A DNA stretch of 64,000 nucleotides from an uncultured Clostridia bacterium (GTDB lineage: Bacteria > Bacillota > Clostridia > Saccharofermentanales > Saccharofermentanaceae), in the NCBI GenBank assembly GCA_946403085.1, contig CAMIYM010000006.1, forward strand, positions 66,131 through 130,130. The letters run 5' to 3'. A program made the position numbers and the translations under genes. Below, piece by piece: positions 6,401 through 57,860 of the stretch. How positions within the stretch are numbered: position 1 is the first letter of the stretch; each line of letters starts with the position of its first letter. A model generated the notes under the pieces. The model was not told where the DNA came from. It did not search any database and was given only the letters and a program-made list of their open reading frames with translations.

Positions 6401-8355
6401 ATGAATTCAAGGAGTTCTCCCATAGCAAAATATGAATCGCAAGGTTCACCTGTACCGGGATAAATAGCATCATTAAATTCAGCATGAAAATCAGCTACAT
6501 GTTCGAAAACAAGTTCAGAAGGAATAACTTCATCTGTACCGTCAGCATATTCACCATTAATATCAAGATCGACATTAACAGTCATGCCCAATGGTTCATG
6601 CGGATCCAAAGGCTTTTTAGTAATGTTCTCATCTCTTAAACTCTCAGGGATCTCATCCGGATTCCAAAGAGACTTATCAATATCGTGAGAAGCGAATTCC
6701 ATCGCATCCTGATCAGATTCGCCTTCTTCTTCAGGCTTAACGGCTTTAAACCCCTTAAGTCTGAACTTTGAAGCGCATACGGTTGTAAATGTATCGCGCA
6801 GCGCATCATTGCCATTACGTTGAATAACGATAGATACAAAAGAACCGACAGACTTCGGCTTCTCAATAAAATTCAGAGCAGCATCATCATCTGCATCAGA
6901 AGGTTTGACCTTATCATTCTTAACATCATAAGGAAGGTTATAGAAAACCGTAGGACCGTCATCAACAAGATAGCCTTCACATCCGAGAATACACTTAATA
7001 GGTGCCTCTCCTGTATCTTTACGCTTCTTATTAATTCCCTTGGCTGCTTCAAATACATGCGGGAATGCCTGTACAACACCATGGTCAGTAACCGCAACAG
7101 CACTGTGTCCGAAAGAAGCTGCAAGCTTAACAAGATCAGCAGGCTCAGTAGTAGCATCACTCTCACTCATCTTGGTATGCACATGCAGTTCTACTCTCTT
7201 ACGCTCAGCAGTATCTTTTCTCTTAGGAGGCTGCTCAGCACTGAAAAAGCCTGATACTCTCAGTGTCTTATCACCGGTGAAAGAATCATTCTCGACATTA
7301 CCCTGAATGCCGACAAATCCGCCTTTTCCGAACTCTTTCTGGAAACCGTCAGCCTCTTCCGGCTTAAGAAATGCTATGCATGAGATTCCGTCTGTGTCAT
7401 CAAGGCACATGAACTTTACGATAACGCTCTTACCGGTCTTAGCAAGCTTAAAAGAGTCGTCGTTAAATGAGATATTACCTGCAATATTGACATCAAAACA
7501 ACCGACAGTAAGATTAGCTATCTTCATGAAAGTAGCCTGCTTCTTAACACGGCCGTAGAGCTGATTCTCAGCATTTTCTTTTGCTTTATAAAAAGACTGC
7601 TTATCTTCCTGCTTAGCTTCTTTTCTTGCCTGCTCAGCTTTAAATGCCCAGGAATCCTTTCCTGCAGAAGCAGCATCGGACTCCTTGGATTTGTCATCCT
7701 TCTTTTTCTTGGTTCCCTTCTTCGAAGAATCTTCTACGGGTTCTTCTTCAGGGAATTCTATACGGCCTTCCTCTATGGCACGAATGATATCGTCATCAGG
7801 CGACATATCACTTCCTGCCATATCGATATTGCTGATCTTGATCTCGTATGTTCCCTGGAGCTGGTCTCCAATACAGATCTCTGTAGCTTCTCCAACAGAA
7901 TTGATTATTCTCTCCCTGTCTGATTTGCCAAACATATTCGCCCATCCGGAAGGTATATCAATATAGGTGATAAAACCACCTGCAGGGCTGTTGTCATAAT
8001 CAATATCGGCTGTAAGACCAATAAAGTCAGCTATATCACCCGCTCCGTCCTGACTGTCACGGGTAATATAGTACTTGATAAGCTTTGATATCTGTCCGTA
8101 AATGACAGGGAAATTAGTACTGTCAATACCGCTGAACAAAAGATTTACTTTTGTTCCGAAATCCTTCTCGAGTTCTTCTACAAAAGGAACAATGCTGTTA
8201 TTGTCCTTAAGTGAATCTACACCGCCTAATACAAGATTAATTGATTGTTTTGCCTTATAAATATCGACCTTAGTTACTGTAAGGTCACAAAGGTCTTCAA
8301 ATCTGCCGTCTTCTACTTTGAATAACTCAAGTAGCTTTACACTTTTCTTCTCCAA
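3406..8355 (-). CDS. polC: DNA polymerase III alpha subunit, PolC type; unusually long at 1649 aa with a divergent exonuclease insert
   Basis: Contains PHP motifs (HVHTKMS, VTDHG), a zinc module (CPKCNY..CPECGEKL), and palm/fingers regions (GSVGSSF, PDIDLNF, HPGG). It sits in the syntenic position after ispG. The TTG start overlaps the ispG 3' end by 29 nt, so the exact start is uncertain. Confidence 0.9.
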   Translation of the reverse strand: MEKKSVKLLELFKVEDGRFEDLCDLTVTKVDIYKAKQSINLVLGGVDSLKDNNSIVPFVEELEKDFGTKVNLLFSGIDSTNFPVIYGQISKLIKYYITRDSQDGAGDIADFIGLTADIDYDNSPAGGFITYIDIPSGWANMFGKSDRERIINSVGEATEICIGDQLQGTYEIKISNIDMAGSDMSPDDDIIRAIEEGRIEFPEEEPVEDSSKKGTKKKKDDKSKESDAASAGKDSWAFKAEQARKEAKQEDKQSFYKAKENAENQLYGRVKKQATFMKIANLTVGCFDVNIAGNISFNDDSFKLAKTGKSVIVKFMCLDDTDGISCIAFLKPEEADGFQKEFGKGGFVGIQGNVENDSFTGDKTLRVSGFFSAEQPPKRKDTAERKRVELHVHTKMSESDATTEPADLVKLAASFGHSAVAVTDHGVVQAFPHVFEAAKGINKKRKDTGEAPIKCILGCEGYLVDDGPTVFYNLPYDVKNDKVKPSDADDDAALNFIEKPKSVGSFVSIVIQRNGNDALRDTFTTVCASKFRLKGFKAVKPEEEGESDQDAMEFASHDIDKSLWNPDEIPESLRDENITKKPLDPHEPLGMTVNVDLDINGEYADGTDEVIPSELVFEHVADFHAEFNDAIYPGTGEPCDSYFAMGELLEFIGDSYITGPDIFTTLAFLRRAGYGINIEDQIYYRHKFLMPATSDEDILETFYKNQYKNIDEALSEKGAKFVYSPCGDKFDEMFSACYKSASLLSLCLSDAGTVDALSINYSAGHYTPEKIKSTKKNGAVSEAPLYHIIYLVRSNMGLYNLYRIVSESQIHYYSRRPRTPKSLLKYFKSGIIVGGACERGEIFRYVITNYRRLNKDRNATREFLKESEEFKKILSLYDYVEIQPLCNNMFLMRQDPSKSDTGTVPLNEDDIRIINELLVETADDHGMMCCATTDSHFLNKEDGRYRKYMLMSMGFSDAEMQSDLYFRTTDEMLSEFSYLGEKKAEEVVIDNTNAVADMIEFGIKPFPDGSYPPQIARAAADVRDIAYTRANRMYRHKGVLNEVVKARLDRELDSIIGHGYAIMYYIAYRLVKKSNNDGYVVGSRGSVGSSFAATMCGISEVNPLPPHYRCPKCNYAQFDNSGKYGSGYDLPPMNCPECGEKLIPDGQDIPFETFLGFKGDKQPDIDLNFSGEYQPRAHAYVGVLFGGTHTFKAGTIGAYQDKNAYGVCRKICEEKGEPFTQAHLAFMARDIIGVKRTTSQHPGGIVVIAKEMDIYEFTPIQFPANKTDCGIITTHFDFRAMHDTILKLDILGHADPTVLRMLSDITGVTITDIPIPDEKVMSLLTGTDALGFPIDATDAGSATLGLSELGTNMARGMIKETKPTRFYDLVQLMGLSHGTDVWTGNAQDLIRDGICDLNSVIGCRDSIMTSLIYWGLPNKDAFDIMEGVRKGKVAAGKVEKWPEYVKEMKECGVPDWYIESCQKIKYMFPKAHAAAYAISTLRVAWFKVYYPEEYYCSFFTNRGEGLFNAEDMCNGPEKVKKRRIELADEMHAKGDPNTKLKYYFYELVEEMYARGITFAPITLNESLGKKFAKAGDKLIRPPFCAISSVSPANGEAIEKAREEGGAFKNRDDFMKRTGVGQSVTQKLLEYGGILDDLPESAQINLFDLM

Positions 8356-19226: not shown

Positions 19227-19303
19227 TGGTCGGAGTGACGGGACTTGAACCCACGACCTCTTGCTCCCTAAGCAAGCACTCTAGCCACCTGAGCTACACC
19301 CCG
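19227..19303 (-). tRNA. tRNA-Pro with anticodon AGG (A at wobble position 34)
   Basis: Hand-folded 77-nt cloverleaf: CGGGGTG/CACTCCG acceptor (C1:G72, A73, encoded CCA), GCTC/GAGT D stem, CTTGC-TTAGGGA-GCAAG anticodon arm, GTGGG-TTCAAGT-CCCGT T arm. With U33 and G37 in place, the anticodon reads A-G-G. Confidence 0.8.
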
Positions 19304-19330
19304 ATGAACAGCCTCGTTAAGGAAAAATAT

Positions 19331-19406
19331 TGGTCGGAGTGGCGGGACTTGAACCCACGGCCTCCTGCTCCCGAAGCAGGCACTCTACCACCTGAGCCAC
19401 ACCCCG
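19331..19406 (-). tRNA. tRNA-Pro (anticodon CGG)
   Basis: 76-nt cloverleaf with the same acceptor arm as the neighbouring tRNA. The anticodon arm is CCTGC-TTCGGGA-GCAGG, the T arm is GTGGG-TTCAAGT-CCCGC, and CCA is encoded. Confidence 0.85.
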
Positions 19407-50085: not shown

Positions 50086-51177
50086 TTATGGTCTTATCGC
50101 CGCATTGAGATTACGGATTTTCTTAAGCTCAGCTTTGTCCGAGTACATACGCTGATCTGAGATCTTTATGGATTCAGTAATGGTCTTTCCTTCTGTAACC
50201 ATAGCGTAGCCGTAAGCACATACATATTCAGTCTTATTCATCTCACATCTTATATTCTCTATGGCTTTTCGTATCATGTCTTCTCCAGCACCTATATAAA
50301 AGATCATGAACTCATCGCCTCCGACACGGTAGACCGTGGAATTGCGGCCACTGTTCGCACGTATAGTTTCCGCGACGGTCTTTAACGCATTGTCACCTGC
50401 TTCATGTCCGAAAGTATCATTAAGATACTTAAGGTCATTCATATCGATGGATACAACACCTGTTATGTATTTCTCATCCACCTCAATATCCTGATAGTAA
50501 CTCTGACGGTTAAGCAGGTTCGTCAGAGGATCGATCTTTGCCATATGGATATAGAGATATGTGAAATACAAAAGCGTTCCTGATGTAAATAATGCGCTGT
50601 AGTCCTTATCGATATCAAGAGCCATTATGATCAGAGCGCCTATAAGAGGTCCGAGCGTAATATAAGCAGCCACAACCTTGCTTACTCTTGAAGAATGCTT
50701 AAGGAAAACAAGATTATGGATCAGGAAAACGATTACATAGAATATGAAAAGATTATACGGAAGATAGCTCAAAAACCCGCCAGCATAGTGATTGGATTCA
50801 TGATAATAGAAAACAATATGCGTCCACTGCGACGTATAGAATATGGGAACACAGACAGCTTCCGGTATCAAAAGAAGCGCGAACAGCTTCTTGTTGATAT
50901 TAGTTGATGTAAGCACCATCATCACGATAATTATAGCCGGATATACCGAATATAATGTCGCAGTAAGGATCGGTCTTAAGACAGTATAGGAAGAAAATGT
51001 CTGAGTCCAGCGTTCTGCTATATAACAGACGAGTTCAATTAACATGAGTCCTATGGCGACAAGAGTCTTGCGCTTCATGCTGAAGGATATATGAGCGCTC
51101 ACAAACAAGAGGATCACAAGCCCGCCAAGCTCATAGATCATAACAAAATTATCACTGATGAATTCGTTTATCGTCAT
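50086..51177 (-). CDS. membrane-anchored diguanylate cyclase (GGDEF)
   Basis: About six N-terminal TM helices are followed by DPLTNLLNRQ and RVGGDEFMIF (the GGDEF active site). Confidence 0.8.
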   Translation of the reverse strand: MTINEFISDNFVMIYELGGLVILLFVSAHISFSMKRKTLVAIGLMLIELVCYIAERWTQTFSSYTVLRPILTATLYSVYPAIIIVMMVLTSTNINKKLFALLLIPEAVCVPIFYTSQWTHIVFYYHESNHYAGGFLSYLPYNLFIFYVIVFLIHNLVFLKHSSRVSKVVAAYITLGPLIGALIIMALDIDKDYSALFTSGTLLYFTYLYIHMAKIDPLTNLLNRQSYYQDIEVDEKYITGVVSIDMNDLKYLNDTFGHEAGDNALKTVAETIRANSGRNSTVYRVGGDEFMIFYIGAGEDMIRKAIENIRCEMNKTEYVCAYGYAMVTEGKTITESIKISDQRMYSDKAELKKIRNLNAAIRP

Positions 51178-51272: not shown

Positions 51273-52028
51273 TCAGAGATTTGCTTCGGGTCCCTTGTAT
51301 CTGGGTTTGCCTTCTGAACCTTTGCCGTATTCGATCGCATCCTTGGGGCACTGGTTGATACAAGCCATGCAGTGCGTACAGTTCTTTCCCCATGACGGCC
51401 TGTTATCAACGATCGTTATATTTGACAGCGGGCATATGCGAGCACATTTACCGCAGGCGATGCACTTATCAGTCGCTCTGAACTTCTTGGTCTTCATGAA
51501 ATCTTTATAGTAAACATCTCTTACCCATCTGGTAACCGAATATTCAAAAGAGCCGATCTTCTTACTGTCCAGCGTATCCCCTGCCATAACAGTATCTGCT
51601 ATCTTTTCTATCACAGGAAGCGCTTCATTTATGATCCTGCTGTTCTCGTCTTTCCCCTTTGTCGTGAATAATGCTATGTAATTCTGCGGCATTACTACCT
51701 GGGCCACTCCCATGAACTCCATGCCTTTCAGCGTGCAAAGATCCATGCTGACATTAGGGGATATCCCCATTGAAGAAGCACAGGTAACAACAAAATATGC
51801 TTTCACACCCTTAGGAAAAGTTGCGGATTCTATGAATTCAGTCATAGTTCTTGCCATGGCAGACATGTAAGAGGGACAACAGAACAGATATACTCCGGTA
51901 TCTTTAAAGACCGGACTTTCATGGTCCTTCGTATACTTTGTGATATCAACAGCTTCCTGCCCTATTGCTCTTGCGATCCTTTCGGCAACGAACCGGCTGT
52001 TACCGGTACCTGAAAAATAAAAGACCAT
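51273..52028 (-). CDS. flavodoxin-like domain fused to a 2x[4Fe-4S] ferredoxin domain (EFR1-type ferredoxin)
   Basis: The N-terminal FYFSGTGNS flavodoxin-like phosphate loop is present. The C-terminus has CIACGKCARICP and CTHCMACINQCP cluster motifs. Confidence 0.7.
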   Translation of the reverse strand: MVFYFSGTGNSRFVAERIARAIGQEAVDITKYTKDHESPVFKDTGVYLFCCPSYMSAMARTMTEFIESATFPKGVKAYFVVTCASSMGISPNVSMDLCTLKGMEFMGVAQVVMPQNYIALFTTKGKDENSRIINEALPVIEKIADTVMAGDTLDSKKIGSFEYSVTRWVRDVYYKDFMKTKKFRATDKCIACGKCARICPLSNITIVDNRPSWGKNCTHCMACINQCPKDAIEYGKGSEGKPRYKGPEANL

Positions 52029-52040
52029 ACATTTCTCCTT

Positions 52041-52694
52041 TTACTTAAGAGGCATTATCACGTTTTCCATGAACTTTCTGGCGCCGTCTTCCTTAAGAAG
52101 CATGTTTAATGTCTTGCTTGAAGGATTGCCATCAACGATCATCCGTTCCCTGAAAGCTTTGAGTTTGTCCTTATACTCAGGAATCACCGAAGAACTCCTT
52201 ACCGATGCCAGATAGGATGTTACTGTATCAAGAGCCATCAATACCAATTCATCTTCCGTACCGGTCTTGATAAGAGAGTAAGGCATTCGTTCTTTTACAT
52301 ACCAGTTATCTTTTTCGTCATAGTCAGGAAGATGCTTATGCTTCTCGAAAACATCTTTAAGAAGCCTGTCGTTTAATCCATCCTGACCGCATCCGTAATA
52401 CTCAGCAAATACGCAGCGTTTCTTCTTCATGCTCATGGCATCGATAAGAAGATAAGGAAGGTTTACAGATTCTGACGGCATAAATGACATCGTTATAAGT
52501 TCCATTCCCATCTTTGTCGTCGTATGCATCAGCATGATATGACCGAATCCAGCTACATCATACTGATCCACGGCAAAACGCATCAGCGGAAGTATTCTCG
52601 GGTATTTCATCCTGGAATACATGTCCTCTTTCTTAAGGACACCGCCGTTACTAAGTATTAGTTCGGATGCACTCTGCTTCAGATTGGCTATCAT
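52041..52694 (-). CDS. hypothetical protein with an unverified remote resemblance to ferredoxin-dependent bilin reductases
   Basis: 217 aa, with a 12-nt gap to the downstream gene and an ATGA overlap with the upstream gene. FGHIMLMH..GMELITMSFMPSESVNLPYLLIDA and the C-terminal DGNPSSKTLNMLLKEDGARKFMENVIMPL line up with PcyA-type motifs as I recall them (see findings). Confidence 0.4.
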   Translation of the reverse strand: MIANLKQSASELILSNGGVLKKEDMYSRMKYPRILPLMRFAVDQYDVAGFGHIMLMHTTTKMGMELITMSFMPSESVNLPYLLIDAMSMKKKRCVFAEYYGCGQDGLNDRLLKDVFEKHKHLPDYDEKDNWYVKERMPYSLIKTGTEDELVLMALDTVTSYLASVRSSSVIPEYKDKLKAFRERMIVDGNPSSKTLNMLLKEDGARKFMENVIMPLK

Positions 52695-53536
52695 TTGCTG
52701 AAACTCTTTTTAATATATTCCTTAAAACTCATATCGCCTGCGACCGTATCGCCGACCATATCATGCGTAAGTGTCCATTTTGAGAATTTGATGATAGCTT
52801 CCTTGCCATTCTTCTTAAGCTTATTGATCCAGGCAAGCATATCGAATATTCCGGGAGATACCATCTTGATCACAGCGGGCTTGCCGGCTGCCTCAAAGCA
52901 CATTTTCGCGATCTCTTCATAAGAATACTTCTCTTTACCACCGACAGAATACATCTTATTCTGATCCAGCATGTGTGAGACGATAAATGCCGCAAAGTCT
53001 TCAGTAGATACGATATTGGCATATACGGGTTCTTTTCCAAGAAGGGTTACCTTACCCTTCTCGATCATAGGCTTGAACACTTTTATGATGTCGTAGAAAT
53101 ATCCGGTCGGACGGTGGATAACATACGTAAGACCGCTCTTTTTCAGTTCTTCCTCGAAAAGATATTTCGCATTGACCATCGGAACATCAGGAGCCTCGTT
53201 GGCTTTAACGACAGAGATATAGACAAAGTTCTTTATTCCGGCTTTTTTCGCTTCATTCAAAAGATTGATATTGCCCTGATAATCAATATCGTAGTTACTT
53301 ACAGTAGCTGAACCCTTGGTAAGACCTACTGTAGTGATCAGGACATCCGCACCGTCGCAAACGCCTTCAAGGGTCTTCGGATCAGTAACATCGATCTTAT
53401 GAAAAACATATCCTGATGAGATACCGATATCTCTTTGGGCTATGTCCAAAGCTATTACTTCATTACCGGATCTGATGAGCTCCCTGAAAACATCAGATCC
53501 AAGATTACCGTAAGCTCCTGCAAGAACAACCTTCAT
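52691..53536 (-). CDS. atypical SDR, NAD(P)H-binding, NmrA/DVR(BciA)-like
   Basis: The N-terminal Rossmann motif is VLAGAYGNLGS. Other matching segments are DYQGNINLLNEAKKAGIKNFVYISV, YVIHRPTGYF, EKGKVTLLG, STEDFAAFI and VGGKEKYSYEEI. Confidence 0.7.
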   Translation of the reverse strand: MKVVLAGAYGNLGSDVFRELIRSGNEVIALDIAQRDIGISSGYVFHKIDVTDPKTLEGVCDGADVLITTVGLTKGSATVSNYDIDYQGNINLLNEAKKAGIKNFVYISVVKANEAPDVPMVNAKYLFEEELKKSGLTYVIHRPTGYFYDIIKVFKPMIEKGKVTLLGKEPVYANIVSTEDFAAFIVSHMLDQNKMYSVGGKEKYSYEEIAKMCFEAAGKPAVIKMVSPGIFDMLAWINKLKKNGKEAIIKFSKWTLTHDMVGDTVAGDMSFKEYIKKSFSK

Positions 53537-53555
53537 AAGCTAAGCCTCCCGAGAT

Positions 53556-54680
53556 TTATTTCATAGTAATCAGTTCATATTCACGTGTGCCTATTCCTAT
53601 CTTCTCAGCATGTTCCAGCGTCTCATTCCAGGAGACATTCGGATTGCTGTTATGCCAGTGATCACCATGATCGTGGAAATGAGGATCTGCCATGTTATCA
53701 CCGAGCTGGCTGTTGCGGATAGGTTCTGCTTTTTGACATAGATCGACACAAGCCTGATCAAGCGCGACCGGATCAAAAGATGCGAGCATTCCGATATCAG
53801 GAAGGATCGGTGCATCATTCTCTCCGTGGCAGTCACAGTTAGGAGATACATCAGTGATAAGGCTTATATGGAAATTCGGTCTGCCGCTGATTACTGCAGC
53901 CGTATATTCAGCCATTCTGCAGCCTAAAAGCTGTGGTGCATCCCAGTTATCGTTCTCTATGGCATCAAAAGCACAAGCTCCGATACAGCGTCCGCACCCT
54001 TTGCACTTATCAGGATCGATCCATGCTTTTTTATTCTCATAGCTTATCGCATCAGATCCGCACTCTTTGGAACATCTCCTGCATCCTCTGCACATATCAG
54101 CAATTACATGCGGATGGCCGCTCTGATGCTGCTGCATCTTTCCGGCACGGCTTCCGCAGCCCATACCGATATTCTTTATAGCTCCGCCGAAGCCTGCCTG
54201 CTCATGTCCTTTGAAATGAGTAAGAGAGATAAAGATATCAGCATCCATTACCGCTCTTCCGATGTAGGCTTCCTTGCAGTACTCTCCGTTCGGAACAGGA
54301 ACGATAATGTCATCTGTACCGCGGAGACCATCAGCAATAAGGATCTGACAGCCTGTAGTTACAGTATTGAATCCGTTCATGTTCGCACAATCAAGGTGCT
54401 CTAATGCATGCTTTCTGCTTCCGGGATAAAGAGTATTGCAGTCAGTAAGGAAAGGAAGACCGCCATTTTCCTTGATGACATCCGCAACTGCCTTGGCATA
54501 GTTTGGTCTCAAATAAGCAAGGTTTCCAAGCTCTCCGAAATGCATCTTGATCGCTACGAACTTACCGTCAAAATCAATTGAACCGATTCCCGCCATCCTG
54601 ATCAGCTTCTGAAGCTTCGCCGTAAGCGATACACCTAAGCCGGTTCTGAAATCGGTGAAATATACCTTTGACTTCTCCAT
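53556..54680 (-). CDS. DUF362-type protein with an inserted 2x[4Fe-4S] ferredoxin module
   Basis: Contains KVYFTDFR..VAIKMHFGE..LTDCNT (DUF362-like), CRGCRRCSKEC and CKGCGRCIGAC cluster motifs, and a downstream CDCHG. Confidence 0.7.
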   Translation of the reverse strand: MEKSKVYFTDFRTGLGVSLTAKLQKLIRMAGIGSIDFDGKFVAIKMHFGELGNLAYLRPNYAKAVADVIKENGGLPFLTDCNTLYPGSRKHALEHLDCANMNGFNTVTTGCQILIADGLRGTDDIIVPVPNGEYCKEAYIGRAVMDADIFISLTHFKGHEQAGFGGAIKNIGMGCGSRAGKMQQHQSGHPHVIADMCRGCRRCSKECGSDAISYENKKAWIDPDKCKGCGRCIGACAFDAIENDNWDAPQLLGCRMAEYTAAVISGRPNFHISLITDVSPNCDCHGENDAPILPDIGMLASFDPVALDQACVDLCQKAEPIRNSQLGDNMADPHFHDHGDHWHNSNPNVSWNETLEHAEKIGIGTREYELITMK

Positions 54681-54881
54681 CGAAAAACTCCTCCTGAAAC
54701 TGTTAAACGGGACTCGAAAAGCACTAAATTATTGGTTTACAACGTCATATTCACATATAAAAGATTCTTATTCAAGACTTGTATTTTGGTAGGTATTGAA
54801 TACACACCCGTTTAATGTACTTATTGTCAGAGCGATAATGTATAATATATTTGATGTTTTATCGGAATGGGAGGATTATTT

Positions 54882-55265
54882 ATGAGTTATTCAGCAAACA
54901 CAGAGCACACACCAATAATCTTTAATGACCATCATGGCGAGAGCCTTGCAGACGCTAACATCCGTATAGGCAACATCAACAGCGAGATCACAGAACTTCA
55001 GATCAAGATCCAGGCTATGTATCAGGTTATGCTCGATCAGGGGATCGATCCACAGGTGTTCGAAGACAAGATAGCGGAGATCATGAAGAACAGAACGCCT
55101 GCTTCTACGATACCCAAAGATTCCCAGCCTTGTCCGAGATGCGGAAGACAGGTTAAGAAATCAACCGTATCCCCGCTTCTTGGAAGATGTCTCTACTGCG
55201 GAAAAGATGTATCGTTCGCACCGACCTTCTTAAGTGGAAACACTCAGGAGAAACCGGCAGAGTAA
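54882..55265 (+). CDS. hypothetical small protein (127 aa) with a coiled-coil segment and a C-terminal zinc ribbon
   Basis: I prefer the ATG at 54882, with GGGAGGA 7 nt upstream. It has CPRCGRQ...CLYCGKD (CxxC-N17-CxxC). A terminator follows. Confidence 0.5.
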   Translation: MSYSANTEHTPIIFNDHHGESLADANIRIGNINSEITELQIKIQAMYQVMLDQGIDPQVFEDKIAEIMKNRTPASTIPKDSQPCPRCGRQVKKSTVSPLLGRCLYCGKDVSFAPTFLSGNTQEKPAE

Positions 55266-55285
55266 TCCATAATTATCACTTAAAC

Positions 55286-55325
55286 AAAAATATCCCCCGT
55301 CTTTATAAGAACGGGGGATTTTTCA
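55286..55325. terminator. bidirectional rho-independent terminator (serves the small + strand ORF and the - strand tRNA-Leu)
   Basis: ATCCCCCGT-N10-ACGGGGGAT is followed by TTTTT on the + strand and preceded by A5 (T-run on the - strand). Confidence 0.65.
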
Positions 55326-55327
55326 TC

Positions 55328-55414
55328 TGGTGCAGATGGCGGGACTTGAACCCGCACGAGATTGCTCCCACTAGCACCTGAAGCTAGCGCGTCTGCCAAT
55401 TCCACCACATCTGC
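55328..55414 (-). tRNA. tRNA-Leu (anticodon CAG)
   Basis: 87-nt class II tRNA with a GCAGATG/CATCTGC acceptor and encoded CCA. The anticodon arm is CTAGC-TTCAGGT-GCTAG, the long variable arm is TGGGAGCAATCTCGT, and the T arm is GCGGG-TTCAAGT-CCCGC. Confidence 0.85.
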
Positions 55415-55490
55415 GTGCGGGATAGATTTTATAACATGAGGCGGTATTTTTCAATAAGAACAAAAAGCCTTGTTAGGTTATAATCTCTTT

Positions 55491-57860
55491 ATGAAAAAAG
55501 TAAATGTTTCCGTTACAGACCTGGCTTCATATATCTCACGCCGCGGTAATCTTTCCGGCGGCTCTTATGGTTCTGTATCAGGAATAGAAGGAACGAGACT
55601 TCACCAGAGAGTCTTTTCGGACCTGAAAAAAGCATACGGAGACATTGTAATTACTGAAGAACCTCTTTGTTTTGACTATATAGCAGATTCCGGTCTTACC
55701 TTATCCGTAAACGGCAGGTTTGATGCCATGATGTTAAAGCCGGGCAAAGCTCCCATGATCTTTGAGATCAAGTCATTTAACTCGACAAGGGAAAGCTTTG
55801 ACGCGCTGGTAAGGCCTGAACATGTAACCCAGCTAAAGCTCTATGGTGCAATGTATCTTCTCACCAATTCAGATGTACTGGATGTCGCTATGACTCTGAG
55901 ATATGTATCCATCACTACTCTGGATAGTTTTGAGAACACATACACCATGTCTTTTGAAGAAGCCGAGAAATTCTGGGAAGAGACATGCGCCGAGTATTGT
56001 GTCTTTGCAAAGACCCTTCTCGATTATCAGACAAGCCTTATAGATTCCACATCACAGATAAGATTTCCTTTCGAGACGATAAGGCCGGGCCAGAAAGAAT
56101 TCATGAAAAAGGCCCTTCTTGCTCTTAATTCGGGAGAAGCCTTTTTCGTTGAAGCTCCTACGGGAATAGGAAAGACAGTATCTGTCCTCTACCCTGCGAT
56201 CAAAGGTCTCGTAAAGAACAGATATGACCAGATCTTCTATCTGACAGCCAAAGAAGCCACCAGAGGAGTTGCCGAAGCGACACTTAATGCGATGAGAAGG
56301 TCAGGTCTCATTATCAGATCCATCACATTACGCTCCAAGGAAAAGATGTGTCCGTTCGGAACTGAATGTGATGCAAAGTTCTGCCCTCTTGCAAAGGACT
56401 ATTACGGCAAGCTCCATGATGCGCTCAAAGAATCTTTGCTGTTAGACGAGATAACTCCGGAACAGATAACCGAGATCGCGTTAAGACATAACATCTGCCC
56501 GCATGAATTCATGATCGACACCATGGAATACTGCACTGTGGTAATTGGAGACTACAATCATATTTTCAGTCCGAGAGTTTCACTCGTGTCCAAGGAACCG
56601 GGGAACCAGCGTGTTGCCGTTCTAGTGGATGAGGCCCATAACATGATCGACAGAGGACGCGATATGTTCTCAGCGTCTTTCTCATTAAGTCTGATAGAAG
56701 AGATGATCAGCGCATTTAAAGGACGAGATACAAAGATCGAGACATATCTCCACCAACTGAGAAACTATTTCATCAATGCAGGGACCTGTTTCGACTCTTC
56801 TTCATCATGCTTTAAACTTCTTGAAGACGCAGACGAACGTAAAGTCCTCATGACAGAGAACTGGGAAGGCATGAGACAGCCGCCAAGACAGCTTTATGCC
56901 AAGCTCTGGTACACGATAAGAAACCTGTCTCCCCTCCTCGACAGCATGGAACAGGGACCCTGCAGAAGAACATCCATGAAGTTCTTCTTCGAGGCAAGAT
57001 ACTTTCTTACTGTCCTTGAGCATTATTTTGACAATGCATATATCACTACAGCTTCAAGAGAGAACGGCGACATTACGATAACACTTGACTGCCTTGACTG
57101 CGCATCCAAGCTTGATTACATAATCAAGGACAGGATGTCGGTCATATTCTTTTCGGCAACATTTACGCCTTACGAGTATTACCGCAATTGTCTGGTGGGA
57201 CCTGATTGTGACTATTCGTCTTTCTTAAGACTGCCTTCGCCATTCCCGCCTGAGAACCTGGAGATCATGATCGACTCAGACATCTCGACAACATATAAGA
57301 ACCGTTCATTAACGCAGGAAGATCTTGCAGTTAGGATCACGGACAGCTTAAACGGCCGCACGGGAAATCACATGATCTTCTTCCCTTCTTTTGAATACAT
57401 GAACCAGATCATGCCAAAGATCGAAAGCGGACTTAAAAGGCTCTCCATAACGGACTATAAGATAATCTCCCAGAATCCTGAGATGACCAACACTGAGAAA
57501 GAAGAATTCCTTGGGAATTTCAATGAACCTTATAACGGTCTTTTGATCGGTGCTGCAGTACTTGGCGGACATTTCGGTGAAGGCATCGACTTAACAGGCG
57601 ACAAACTGACCGGCGTTATAATCGTCGGTGTTGGTCTGCCCAAGATCACACCGGAACGTCAGATACTAAGCAACTACTATTCAGAAAAGTTCGGTGACGG
57701 ATTCGCATTCGCATACAGATTCCCCGGATGGCAGAAAGTCCTTCAGGCAGTGGGCAGAGTTATCCGCACAGAAACTGATACAGGCTTTGCGCTCCTCATA
57801 GATGAAAGACTCGCAAAGCCTGAATATATCATGTTATTTCCTGATCACTGGAAGATCTGA
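55491..57860 (+). CDS. PD-(D/E)xK nuclease domain fused to an XPD/DinG-family Fe-S DNA helicase
   Basis: The N-terminal ~185 aa has GRFDAMM..IFEIKS..QLKLYGAMY (a RecB/Cas4-like D..ExK..QxxxY pattern). Then come Walker A EAPTGIGKT, four Cys (CPFGTECDAKFCP...CPHEF) as in XPD/DinG Fe-S domains, DEAH (VLVDEAHN) and C-terminal helicase motifs (GRVIRTETD). I prefer the ATG at 55491; TATAAT lies 6 nt upstream and no SD is seen, so the mRNA may be leaderless. Confidence 0.8.
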   Translation: MKKVNVSVTDLASYISRRGNLSGGSYGSVSGIEGTRLHQRVFSDLKKAYGDIVITEEPLCFDYIADSGLTLSVNGRFDAMMLKPGKAPMIFEIKSFNSTRESFDALVRPEHVTQLKLYGAMYLLTNSDVLDVAMTLRYVSITTLDSFENTYTMSFEEAEKFWEETCAEYCVFAKTLLDYQTSLIDSTSQIRFPFETIRPGQKEFMKKALLALNSGEAFFVEAPTGIGKTVSVLYPAIKGLVKNRYDQIFYLTAKEATRGVAEATLNAMRRSGLIIRSITLRSKEKMCPFGTECDAKFCPLAKDYYGKLHDALKESLLLDEITPEQITEIALRHNICPHEFMIDTMEYCTVVIGDYNHIFSPRVSLVSKEPGNQRVAVLVDEAHNMIDRGRDMFSASFSLSLIEEMISAFKGRDTKIETYLHQLRNYFINAGTCFDSSSSCFKLLEDADERKVLMTENWEGMRQPPRQLYAKLWYTIRNLSPLLDSMEQGPCRRTSMKFFFEARYFLTVLEHYFDNAYITTASRENGDITITLDCLDCASKLDYIIKDRMSVIFFSATFTPYEYYRNCLVGPDCDYSSFLRLPSPFPPENLEIMIDSDISTTYKNRSLTQEDLAVRITDSLNGRTGNHMIFFPSFEYMNQIMPKIESGLKRLSITDYKIISQNPEMTNTEKEEFLGNFNEPYNGLLIGAAVLGGHFGEGIDLTGDKLTGVIIVGVGLPKITPERQILSNYYSEKFGDGFAFAYRFPGWQKVLQAVGRVIRTETDTGFALLIDERLAKPEYIMLFPDHWKI

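Follow-up and report, generated by a model that had tools for sequence, protein, structure and literature searches.

A very divergent relative of ferredoxin-dependent bilin reductases within a four-gene reductase block of a rumen Clostridiales bacterium

The DNA analysed here (the window, 64,000 nucleotides) comes from a strictly anaerobic, non-phototrophic rumen Clostridiales bacterium and carries a four-gene block that is best explained as a cytoplasmic multi-reductase module. One of its products, an orphan protein of 217 aa, belongs to the superfamily of the ferredoxin-dependent bilin reductases (FDBRs) as a very divergent member, as judged from the fold of its AF2 model, transitive profile homology and motif register. 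The gene for this FDBR-like protein is recurrently linked with SDR-flavoprotein operons, and proteins of its kind make up an anaerobe clade, so far undescribed, within a known enzyme superfamily, and have partners new to it. With middling confidence, the block is read as a module in which the FDBR-like protein, together with an EFR1-family protein and an SDR, reduces double bonds in a pigment, namely a linear tetrapyrrole or something akin to it. An operon of an anaerobic cow-rumen bacterium may in this way process pigment-type molecules in the gut.

The block (51273-54680) was found in the ORF listing of the window as four co-directional ORFs on the minus strand (Table 1), and the layout given in the original prediction, with its gaps and overlap, was confirmed exactly in coordinates and junctions. 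Read directly from the sequence, the DUF362/SDR junction consists of TAA, 19 nt with GGGAGG, and ATG; the SDR and FDBR-like genes share a stop/start overlap of 4 nt (ATGA); and the FDBR-like/EFR1 junction consists of TAA, 12 nt with AAGGAG, and ATG. The first (DUF362) gene is preceded by AGGAGG. The intergenic region upstream of it is presumed to be the promoter region of the block; a search there for a sigma-70 consensus or a terminator gave nothing convincing above chance, and an Rfam search of it returned no element. The identical four-gene arrangement was found again in independent metagenome contigs from bovine and other ruminant sources, and the four genes are therefore real and conserved rather than chance ORFs. 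The neighbours that had been named (tRNA-Leu, nifS, thiI and a GGDEF gene, the last directly downstream of the block) were all present. The description of this stretch as accessory was not borne out by composition, since the GC content of the block (0.42-0.47) is the same as that of its flanks and gives no sign of accessory origin.

Table 1 Features of the four-gene block and its upstream region
Feature	Position	Strand	Length	Remark
DUF362-family gene	53556-54680	-	374 aa	First gene of the block
NmrA-like atypical SDR gene	52691-53536	-	281 aa	
FDBR-like gene	52041-52694	-	217 aa	Formerly 'hypothetical'
EFR1-family gene	51273-52028	-	251 aa	
Upstream intergenic region	54681-54866	-	186 nt	AT-rich; holds the RBS of the first gene

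Neither Pfam nor NCBIfam yielded a family for the FDBR-like protein, and PF05996 gave no direct match at E<=1, so that the relation to FDBRs proposed for this orphan was upheld by other routes. Its AF2 model (pLDDT 93.4, pTM 0.91) was compared with the PDB by Foldseek, and the best 46 matches were all FDBR/RCCR family structures (E 1.8e-9 to 1.2e-3, TMq 0.54-0.79, full length), including the PcyA and PebS for which a fold comparison had been suggested as well as PebB, PebA, HY2, RCCR and PcyX; the match that followed them was coproporphyrinogen oxidase (0.058). A fold search of BFVD led to a phage PcyA-like protein. The link to PF05996 was obtained through the family profile of the FDBR-like proteins (A1), which found 268 representative clusters: PF05996 matched 46 of the 99 full-length A1 profile matches, and one protein (P0202) bridges both families, matching A1 at E 9.6e-12 and PF05996 at 55.4 bits (cut-off 31). 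The protein's own family profile found no match among solved FDBRs; the wider A2 profile matched PebB (1e-6), PebA (6e-5) and PcyA (4e-3), and hhalign of A1 against three solved FDBRs gave E 9.5e-4 with the register unchanged.

Alignment and residue mapping showed that the central catalytic Asp is retained (D85, corresponding to PcyA D105). To our knowledge, this proton-donating residue is essential in every FDBR studied. The positions of PcyA H88 and E76 are occupied by T68 and M56, and N190 stands where the 'DP' motif of PebA/PebB has Asp (the second, C-terminal Asp of PebA/PebS). Further positions could be mapped (F/M-P73, L79-P80, E98=D119, E127=E150 and W131=W154), and the pocket positions that are kept include E127 and W131. 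As the central Asp is the only known FDBR proton donor to be kept, the mechanism may be non-canonical, or the protein may do no more than bind. The FDBR-like protein might accordingly be a non-enzymatic carrier, chaperone or sequestering protein, which either feeds a pigment-type substrate to the SDR and flavoprotein reductases or shields the cell from it. The lost H88, E76 and C-terminal Asp equivalents would fit such a role, as would the optional presence of the gene in operons, its many stand-alone copies and its faster evolution relative to the SDR (about 70% identity against 85-88% for the SDR in the same relatives). However, D85, like P73, P80, E98 and W131, keeps a conservation of at least 90% throughout the wide FDBR-like family, although this family has otherwise diverged to about 20% identity, which is hard to square with a pure binder, and the tandem paralogue pairs resemble sequential reductases of the PebA/PebB type. 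We consider the non-enzymatic role rather improbable.

The domain calls made earlier for the DUF362 and flavodoxin/ferredoxin fusion proteins proved correct by Pfam/NCBIfam families. The DUF362 protein matches PF04015 at 6.2e-57 (residues 42-313), with a Fer4 dicluster inserted within the domain at residues about 193-242; its two CxxCxxCxxxC motifs correspond to 2x[4Fe-4S], and its PDB matches are limited to the Fer4 module. The EFR1 protein matches NF038196 over its whole length (3.2e-72, 243 bits, cut-off 75). Its N-terminus is flavodoxin-like with an SGTGNS phosphate loop, and its C-terminus is a 2x[4Fe-4S] ferredoxin (Flavodoxin_5 and Fer4 Pfam matches); the N-terminal domain gave no sequence match to FldH and matched classical flavodoxins weakly at residues 2-40. 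This fusion is likely an electron-transfer or flavin-dependent partner. The SDR is a generic NmrA-like/extended SDR, matching PF13460 (NAD_binding_10) and PF05368 (NmrA), both at about 2e-16, and also 3Beta_HSD (8e-12), with GxxGxxG at residues 7-13 and no YxxxK motif. Its PDB sequence neighbours are an NmrA-family regulator, triphenylmethane reductase, SimC7 and YtfG/QOR2; Foldseek returned generic extended SDRs, and the nearest solved relatives also include NDUFA9 and GalE-type proteins. Nothing specific in the sequence or fold searches tied it to BLVRB or ChuY, the kinship that had been suggested, and these searches, run without the BciA sequence itself, gave no specific link to BciA/DVR either.

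The conservation of the gene set was surveyed from two sides, namely 52 species-level loci of FDBR-like genes in GTDB and, starting from the SDR in metagenomes, 30 SDR-EFR1 operons (Type I) and 36 TetR/flavin-reductase/SDR/DUF1295 operons. The loci came mostly from ruminant gut samples, with some human-gut contigs, and the cultured Lachnospiraceae bacterium LC2019 is among the carriers of the operon. The SDR adjoins the FDBR-like gene in 25 of the 52 loci, in at least five gene orders, in four bacterial families and one Atopobiaceae, and EFR1 adjoins the SDR in 17/52 loci from GTDB and 30 from metagenomes, whether or not the FDBR-like gene is there too. The FDBR-like gene itself occurs in 20/30 SDR-EFR1 operons and 16/36 operons of the second type, at three different positions and from two FDBR-like subfamilies; it is present in two copies in four loci, and in about half of the species loci it stands solitary with housekeeping genes around it. 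DUF362 adjoins the SDR in only 4/52 GTDB loci and in 9/30 Type I loci. The co-conservation of all four genes across Clostridia that the original prediction called for was thus not found, with DUF362 so rarely adjacent and the FDBR-like gene missing from 10/30 SDR-EFR1 operons. Since EFR1 stays beside the SDR in those ten operons, it is not a donor dedicated to the FDBR-like protein, contrary to what had been suggested. The SDR is present in both operon types and forms the hub together with a flavoprotein, which can be EFR1 or else a flavin-reductase-like protein accompanied by a DUF1295 membrane protein. The FDBR-like gene joins this hub often but is optional, and DUF362 is a lineage-specific accessory. 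Mere adjacency through chance or inherited synteny, without a shared function, would agree with the many solitary FDBR-like genes and with the GTDB loci having DUF362, three of which share the nifS-thiI synteny of the window. It is nevertheless very improbable, given that the SDR/FDBR-like/flavoprotein linkage repeats across gene orders, taxa and flanking contexts and that the genes are translationally coupled by the ATGA overlap in the window. The sister operon has a TetR regulator at its head and alpha/beta hydrolases as neighbours, and its DUF1295 membrane protein also matches Steroid_dh (3-oxo-5-alpha-steroid 4-dehydrogenase). The partner families (DUF1295/steroid 5-alpha-reductase-like) and the 3Beta_HSD match of the SDR would also suit a steroid or lipid substrate.

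For the enzyme activity, the electron route, the substrate class and a catabolic or detoxifying role we infer the following scheme. The alpha/beta/alpha pocket of the FDBR-like protein would take a large conjugated substrate, the likeliest candidate being a linear tetrapyrrole, or else some related pigment that the cell takes up from the gut; it is the fold that points to a tetrapyrrole. One C=C would be reduced in two steps, each with one electron and one proton. D85 would donate the proton, and a low-potential Fe-S/flavin carrier would supply the electrons, a role for which the co-encoded EFR1 fusion is the obvious candidate. The SDR, whose gene is the most conserved of the module, may transfer hydride from NAD(P)H to another double bond or a carbonyl of the same substrate, and the DUF362-2x[4Fe-4S] protein may be an additional redox component in the present lineage only. 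The TetR-headed sister operon, the absence of heme oxygenase beside those loci whose genes were annotated and the mostly ruminant-gut origin of the loci suggest a catabolic or detoxifying flavour. Alternatively, the module may reduce a lipophilic non-tetrapyrrole (for example a steroid, a bile acid, phytol or another isoprenoid, or an unsaturated lipid), with the SDR and flavoprotein performing the chemistry and the FDBR fold re-used for another large hydrophobic ligand. This would suit a hub in which the FDBR-like gene is optional, the mostly substituted canonical catalytic residues, the 3Beta_HSD match and the sister operon with its DUF1295/Steroid_dh protein, TetR and nearby hydrolases. The 3Beta_HSD and Steroid_dh matches are, however, generic Rossmann/membrane-reductase likeness, well under specific assignment; the central Asp and the pocket positions are kept; and all characterised FDBR/RCCR-fold members, as well as the fold neighbour coproporphyrinogen oxidase, use tetrapyrroles (PMC10151467). 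We regard this alternative as unlikely, though by no means far-fetched.

A biosynthetic FDBR that supplies a sensor, such as the neighbouring GGDEF protein, with a bilin chromophore, in the manner of PcyA/pre-PcyA and biliproteins, is the least probable of the readings. Superfamily membership and the downstream GGDEF gene speak for it. However, apart from its GGDEF domain the neighbouring protein offers just a membrane N-terminus, with no GAF, PAS or globin domain, its gene lies beside the module only in close relatives, and the obligately anaerobic hosts would not be expected to form biliverdin by an oxygen-dependent route. Heme oxygenase was found beside none of the loci with annotated genes, and no tetrapyrrole genes (heme oxygenase, ChuW-like radical SAM, transporter) were linked at any locus, which weighs against the pigment-reducing reading too. 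The lack of linked heme oxygenase and biliprotein genes contrasts with pre-PcyA clusters (PMC10151467).

Returning to the pigment-reducing module, its central protein resembles known FDBRs (PcyA, PebA, PebB, PebS, HY2, PcyX; PF05996) from end to end in its alpha/beta/alpha sandwich (TM 0.7-0.8) and keeps their motif register ('F-P ... L-P-x4-D' plus the motif of the C-terminal helix). Also shared are the central Asp that donates a proton, a size within their 210-260 aa without cofactor motifs, and a co-encoded low-potential electron carrier. It differs in its identity of 10-15% without a direct Pfam match, in having T, M and N in place of H88, E76 and the second Asp of PebA/PebS, and in its hosts, anaerobic, non-phototrophic gut Firmicutes with no linked heme oxygenase or biliprotein. 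Its gene sits within SDR/flavoprotein reductase operons, a setting in which we know of no FDBR. The pre-PcyA FDBRs of heterotrophic bacteria (pre-1 and pre-2, along with pre-3) are likewise metagenome-derived relatives beyond oxygenic phototrophs (Rockwell et al. 2023, PMC10151467; PMC13446030). Their genes cluster with heme oxygenase, Fe-S, V4R and globin (BBAG) genes, none of which accompanies the FDBR-like family, and their products are phytochromobilin or phycoerythrobilin; these studies mention neither the FDBR-like family nor any Firmicutes or Clostridia (PMC10151467; PMC13446030). RCCR belongs to the same superfamily (Foldseek E 1.5e-6 to 1e-4), with a fold match weaker than that of PebA, PebB or PcyA. 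It is a plant/plastid enzyme, whereas the FDBR-like protein is bacterial, but as a catabolic member acting on a chlorophyll-derived linear tetrapyrrole it sets an example for a catabolic function directed at plant pigment.

Closest to the role proposed here are BilR and BilV, enzymes of anaerobic gut Firmicutes that reduce methine/vinyl C=C of a host-derived linear tetrapyrrole and carry bilirubin to urobilinogen (PMC10769871, PMC13278186, PMC13252198). They belong to the Old Yellow Enzyme family (TIM barrel, flavin, Fe-S), a domain that the four-gene block lacks. Gut vinyl and methine reductions had been described as lacking enzymes; since BilR/BilV cover the step from bilirubin to urobilinogen, no niche is open there, while the enzyme from urobilinogen to stercobilinogen is still unassigned (PMC13278186, Discussion). 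ChuY (an NmrA-like anaerobilin reductase), BLVRB and BciA/DVR fall with the SDR into one broad class of atypical, NmrA-like reductases, which use NAD(P)H and may have tetrapyrrole C=C bonds as targets. Finally, HmuF/FldH are flavodoxin-superfamily anaerobilin reductases (PMC10404700). Although HmuF lacks the 2x[4Fe-4S] domain of EFR1, a flavodoxin-like FMN protein is in their case encoded beside tetrapyrrole-processing genes in an anaerobe, which sets a precedent for the flavodoxin-like domain of EFR1 acting as a reductase, beyond a carrier role.

The four genes of the block were found as co-directional minus-strand open reading frames at exactly the coordinates of the original prediction (ORF listing of the window), and its domain descriptions were borne out by domain searches for three of the four proteins. 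The first protein matched DUF362 (PF04015; 6e-57, 193 bits against a cut-off of 24) over residues 42-313, a span which includes a Fer4 dicluster, namely a 2x[4Fe-4S] module, at residues 193-242. The second is an atypical SDR with NmrA and NAD_binding_10 matches at about 2e-16 and a GxxGxxG motif at residues 7-13, and the fourth, composed of a flavodoxin-like domain and 2x[4Fe-4S], belongs to the EFR1 family (NF038196; 243.4 bits against a cut-off of 75, residues 2-245 of 251). An OYE TIM-barrel domain of the BilR/BilV type was absent from all four proteins in Pfam and NCBIfam searches. Reading the junctions directly, an AGGAGG motif precedes the DUF362 gene, whose TAA is separated from the ATG of the SDR gene by 19 nt including GGGAGG; the SDR and the third gene share a stop/start overlap (ATGA); and the TAA of the third gene is followed by 12 nt including AAGGAG and then the ATG of the EFR1 gene. 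The GC content of the block was indistinguishable from that of its flanks, giving no sign of horizontal transfer, no riboswitch or other Rfam element was detected upstream of it, and promoter and terminator scans performed no better than shuffles. Several independent metagenome contigs of bovine and other ruminant origin carry the same four-gene block with GGDEF, nifS and thiI genes after it, so the host is a rumen Clostridiales bacterium. Coordinates are collected in the table below, together with those of features in related loci of other genomes or metagenome contigs (L-numbers).

Coordinates of the block, of its surroundings and of selected related loci
Feature	Sequence	Positions	Strand	Remarks
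tRNA-Pro, tandem pair	window	19227-19406	-	anticodons AGG (unusual for Pro among bacteria) and CGG, 27 nt apart
GGDEF protein	window	50086-51177	-	95 nt downstream of block
EFR1 protein	window	51273-52028	-	block, fourth gene
Orphan, FDBR-like	window	52041-52694	-	block, third gene
SDR	window	52691-53536	-	block, second gene
DUF362 protein	window	53556-54680	-	block, first gene
Small zinc-ribbon protein, 132 aa	window	54867-55265	+	upstream of block
ORF, 64 aa	window	55187-55381		overlaps tRNA-Leu; probably spurious
tRNA-Leu(CAG)	window	55328-55414	-	upstream of block; good intrinsic terminator at 55319-55292
DinG-like DEAD_2 helicase	window	55470-57860	+	upstream of block
Flavodoxin_5 + rubredoxin-like fusion, 208 aa	L001/L032 (Erysipelotrichaceae)	6698-7324	-	convergent to stand-alone FDBR-like gene
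FDBR-like paralogue pair	L009/L010	6001-7353		
FDBR-like paralogue pair	L056	6001-6612 and 8592-9200		
Sister operon	L047	4460-8915		followed by alpha/beta hydrolases and a GNAT acetyltransferase
SDR-EFR1 pair lacking FDBR-like gene	L077	4001-5643		flanked by toxin-antitoxin genes (HepT/MNT, BrnT, CdiA_C-like)

The third gene encodes an orphan protein of 217 aa, which had been likened on motifs to ferredoxin-dependent bilin reductases (FDBRs). No match to it was found in Pfam, NCBIfam or, by phmmer, the PDB sequences; against the FDBR family PF05996 (Fe_bilin_red) it stayed below the gathering threshold, with no match at E<=1. A P22_AR_N match at 4e-4 was also below threshold and was dismissed as noise. 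The orphan has 193 close homologues, and among the 120 matches listed all were at least 54% identical, unnamed or 'hypothetical', and devoid of a precomputed Pfam domain; every source name seen for the family was 'hypothetical protein'. An alignment of 35 close homologues (A1) was used as input for an AlphaFold (AF2) model, which reached a pLDDT of 93.4 and a pTM of 0.91. In a Foldseek search of the PDB with this model, the top 46 matches all belonged to the FDBR/RCCR family (PebB, PcyA, PebA, HY2, RCCR, PebS, PcyX and the FDBR-like subunit of the Ycf2-FtsHi motor), at E values from 1.8e-9 to 1.2e-3, TM-scores (TMq) up to 0.79 and full-length coverage; the next match was coproporphyrinogen oxidase at 0.058, and the rest was noise. 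A search of a viral structure library returned a phage PcyA-like protein. The whole orphan is thus modelled as the three-layer alpha/beta/alpha sandwich of the FDBR/RCCR superfamily.

Sequence profiles led to the same family. The A1 profile gave no FDBR match in the PDB, where its matches to CagY and designed repeats were dismissed as low-complexity helix matches, and collected 268 representative clusters (50% identity) among 1.8 billion proteins. Of its full-length matches, which form the wider-family alignment A2, 46 of 99 match PF05996; one of these wider-family proteins, P0202, was matched by A1 at 9.6e-12 and scores 55.4 bits against PF05996 (cut-off 31, profile positions 4-227). The A2 profile in turn retrieved PebB (1e-6), PebA (6e-5), PcyA (4e-3) and PebS (0.015) from the PDB, and hhalign of A1 against three solved FDBRs gave an E value of 9.5e-4 with the register unchanged. 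Judged from these profiles, sequence homology of the orphan to recognised FDBRs is detectable through a transitive link. The orphan is a divergent protein of the FDBR superfamily.

With respect to PcyA, the orphan keeps F71-M72-P73 (M91-F92-P93 in PcyA), L79-P80 (L99-P100), D85 (D105), E98 (D119), E127 (E150) and W131 (W154), while three positions differ: T68 stands for H88, M56 for E76 and N190 for the Asp of the PebA/PebB 'DP' motif. The central beta-sheet Asp of FDBRs (D105 in PcyA, also present in PebA/PebS) is therefore retained as D85, which is invariant in A1. In A2 and a further wider-family alignment (A3), D85, P73, P80, E98 and W131 are at least 90% conserved in a family diverging to about 20% identity. 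No equivalent of the second proton-donating residue (PcyA H88/E76 or the C-terminal-helix 'DP' Asp) was found in the orphan. The motif-based assignment thus stood at the superfamily level, on Foldseek and profile evidence, and fell short at Pfam-level membership and for part of the canonical catalytic set.

Many wider-family members are extended at the N-terminus by 40-100 residues, in which one or two transmembrane helices are predicted (P0183, P0202, P0186, P0215 and P0245; loci L070-L076), and stand alone amid housekeeping genes in rumen metagenomes. To our knowledge, no membrane-anchored FDBR relative has been described. In P0163 (651 aa) a calcineurin-like metallophosphoesterase domain is fused to a C-terminal FDBR-like domain, and P0232 (484 aa) and the rest of its cluster have about 250 extra N-terminal residues of no recognised family.

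Scanning one genome per GTDB species with A1 as query yielded 52 loci, almost all from ruminant gut MAGs of Clostridiales, Oscillospiraceae, Lachnospiraceae and Erysipelotrichaceae, together with one Atopobiaceae and one cultured isolate, Lachnospiraceae bacterium LC2019 (L024). When the neighbours were scored against the window proteins, an SDR gene adjoined the FDBR-like gene at 25 of the 52 loci, EFR1 at 17 and DUF362 at only four; at about 27 loci, some on short contigs, the FDBR-like gene was alone. A search for informative neighbours of stand-alone copies turned up only housekeeping genes (pyrBI, nucleoside hydrolase, chromate transporter, sulfatase). At three of the four DUF362 loci the nifS-thiI synteny is that of the window, so this adjacency may be inherited rather than independently selected. 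The gene orders observed were SDR, FDBR-like, EFR1; FDBR-like, SDR, EFR1; FDBR-like, a second FDBR-like paralogue, SDR, EFR1; TetR, flavin-reductase-like, FDBR-like, SDR, DUF1295, a 200-aa membrane protein; SDR, DUF1295, FDBR-like in the Atopobiaceae MAG; and a divergent arrangement in a Faecalibacterium MAG. Some operons hold two FDBR-like paralogues of different subfamilies ('GNPSS' and 'GGPST'), in tandem or flanking SDR genes (L009/L010, L056, L149, L150, L157, L159), which recalls the PebA/PebB pairs that perform successive two-electron reductions. In the Erysipelotrichaceae flavodoxin fusion next to a stand-alone FDBR-like gene, a rubredoxin-like domain takes the place of the 4Fe-4S domain of EFR1.

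Around the SDR gene, the FDBR-like gene is not a fixed component. In a scan of metagenomes with an SDR alignment, 80 loci were scored and two operon types appeared. Type I, that of the window ([DUF362], SDR, [FDBR-like], EFR1, optional genes in brackets), comprised 30 loci, with the FDBR-like gene in 20 and DUF362 in nine. Type II, the sister operon (TetR, flavin-reductase-like, [FDBR-like], SDR, DUF1295, membrane protein, [FDBR-like of the wider subfamily]), comprised 36 loci, some on contigs labelled human gut metagenome; 16 had an FDBR-like gene and four had two. The two types share the same SDR orthogroup; the flavin-reductase-like protein of Type II has 313 aa, and its DUF1295 membrane protein is steroid-5-alpha-reductase-like. 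Sister operons (L043, L046-L048, L056; metagenome loci L101-L159) occur in Erysipelotrichaceae/Solobacterium, Oscillospiraceae, Faecalibacterium and the Atopobiaceae MAG, and on the human gut contigs L137 and L150.

Two SDR homologues of 78-82% identity adjoin EFR1 and have no FDBR-like gene beside them, with a spacer of 32 nt in L077; such pairs were also seen in L078, L079, L096, L098-L100, L106, L107 and L123, the clean spacer measuring 20-32 nt in L077-L079. Where the two window proteins were compared with one set of relatives, SDR identity is 85-88% against about 70-72% for the FDBR-like protein, whose gene is translationally coupled to that of the SDR; the SDR thus evolves much more slowly. 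Since SDR operons exist with and without the FDBR-like gene, the hub of the system is the SDR plus a flavoprotein, and the FDBR-like gene is a frequent yet dispensable member, drawn from two subfamilies and placed at any of three positions. These frequencies weigh against a fixed four-gene system, and the SDR-EFR1 pairs that lack the FDBR-like gene speak against EFR1 as a donor dedicated to its product. There is strong evidence that the FDBR-like protein is functionally linked to the SDR pathway, and chance adjacency of the genes is unlikely.

For the SDR, the PDB sequence neighbours were an NmrA-family regulator, triphenylmethane reductase, SimC7, YtfG/QOR2 and NDUFA9, and its AF2 model, with a pLDDT of only 69 because of a shallow alignment, led Foldseek to generic extended/atypical SDRs. 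BLVRB and ChuY were absent both from its PDB sequence matches (E<=0.01) and from the top 50 Foldseek matches of this model, and NCBIfam gave no vinyl-reductase family match. Its putative likeness to BciA/DVR draws on joint membership of the very broad NmrA-like class. The N-domain of EFR1 did not match the heme-binding flavodoxins HmuF/FldH, and no specific family or structure was obtained for the flavin-reductase-like protein or DUF1295 of the sister operon. A literature search returned no function for DUF362, DUF1295 or EFR1; DUF362 is an uncharacterised family whose Pfam clan also includes the LarA family, DUF2088 (PMC11770544).

In the best-supported reading, the cell imports a large conjugated molecule from the gut and reduces it in several steps. 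A two-electron reduction driven by ferredoxin/flavodoxin, in which D85 would donate protons, would fall to the FDBR-like protein, and the SDR would add an NAD(P)H-dependent hydride reduction. Electrons would be supplied by EFR1 or, in the sister operon, by the flavin-reductase-like protein, unless these act as a third reductase. Ferredoxin-driven reduction of biliverdin or another bilin by the orphan is predicted, and the adjoining Fe-S/flavodoxin fusion gene supports it indirectly; a second rival has the FDBR-like protein merely bind or deliver its ligand. A tetrapyrrole is favoured as substrate since all characterised members of the fold and its nearest fold neighbour act on tetrapyrroles and the pocket residues are kept. 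The main rival, a lipophilic substrate that is not a tetrapyrrole, draws on the DUF1295/steroid-reductase-like and 3Beta_HSD-like similarities and on the optional presence of the FDBR-like gene in the operons, and we regard it as possible, if somewhat doubtful.

Within the reductive reading, a catabolic or detoxifying role is favoured by the anaerobic hosts, the TetR gene of the sister operon and the lack of linked heme oxygenase or biliprotein genes (globin, phytochrome), none of which was found in the window block or in annotated related loci. A biosynthetic chromophore role is unlikely. Its variant tied to the neighbouring GGDEF gene was rejected, since the GGDEF protein (a multi-pass membrane N-terminus of about 200 residues) has no recognisable sensor domain and the adjacency is not conserved. 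The GGDEF gene is kept in place in the closest relatives of the window and in L012, and is missing from L022 and L023 despite their nifS-thiI genes.

That FDBR-like protein, NmrA-like SDR and flavoprotein make up a hitherto unknown anaerobic route by which gut Firmicutes process exogenous tetrapyrroles is, in our estimate, rather improbable; if it holds, no catabolic FDBR would have been known from anaerobes before, and the family would have gained a deep branch of the 'archae-FDBR' type. One candidate role is the reduction of urobilinogen to stercobilinogen, and another concerns dietary chlorophyll catabolites in the rumen, by conversion of pyropheophorbide to phylloerythrin or by phyllobilin reduction. 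Phylloerythrin is an isomer of pyropheophorbide a with the vinyl group reduced and the chlorin ring oxidised, and its formation from chlorophyll in the rumen is the basis of hepatogenous photosensitisation in livestock. We know of no enzymes assigned to this conversion. For gut and rumen pigment reactions that have long been known yet have no assigned enzyme, the family supplies concrete candidate genes, and the cultured isolate LC2019 makes the hypothesis directly testable.

In cyanobacteria, algae and plants, and in the phages of these organisms, FDBRs are known to make pigments, and lately they have also become known from some heterotrophs with heme oxygenase. Outside phototrophs, pre-PcyA lineages cluster with heme oxygenase, Fe-S, V4R and globin genes, and the two papers defining these FDBRs do not mention Firmicutes or Clostridia (PMC10151467, PMC13446030). 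No description of the orphan's family was found in the literature, although a negative search is not proof. For gut bilins, the view that the reductions lack assigned enzymes is out of date for bilirubin to urobilinogen, which is carried out, vinyl reduction included, by BilR and BilV of the Old Yellow Enzyme family (PMC10769871, PMC13278186, PMC13252198), and holds for urobilinogen to stercobilinogen, explicitly listed as having no enzyme (PMC13278186, Discussion). The orphan's family represents a new branch, not described before, within a known superfamily; its partners are new, and it was not expected in organisms of this type. In contrast to the PcyA/pre-PcyA biosynthetic clusters, the annotated FDBR-like loci lack linked heme oxygenase and biliprotein genes, and their hosts are unable to make biliverdin aerobically, which suggests that the fold serves catabolism or detoxification in them. 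This sizeable unannotated branch of 268 clusters takes the FDBR superfamily into obligately anaerobic gut Firmicutes and bears on the early history of the family, for which the existence of 'archae-FDBR' enzymes has been posed as a question (PMC13446030).
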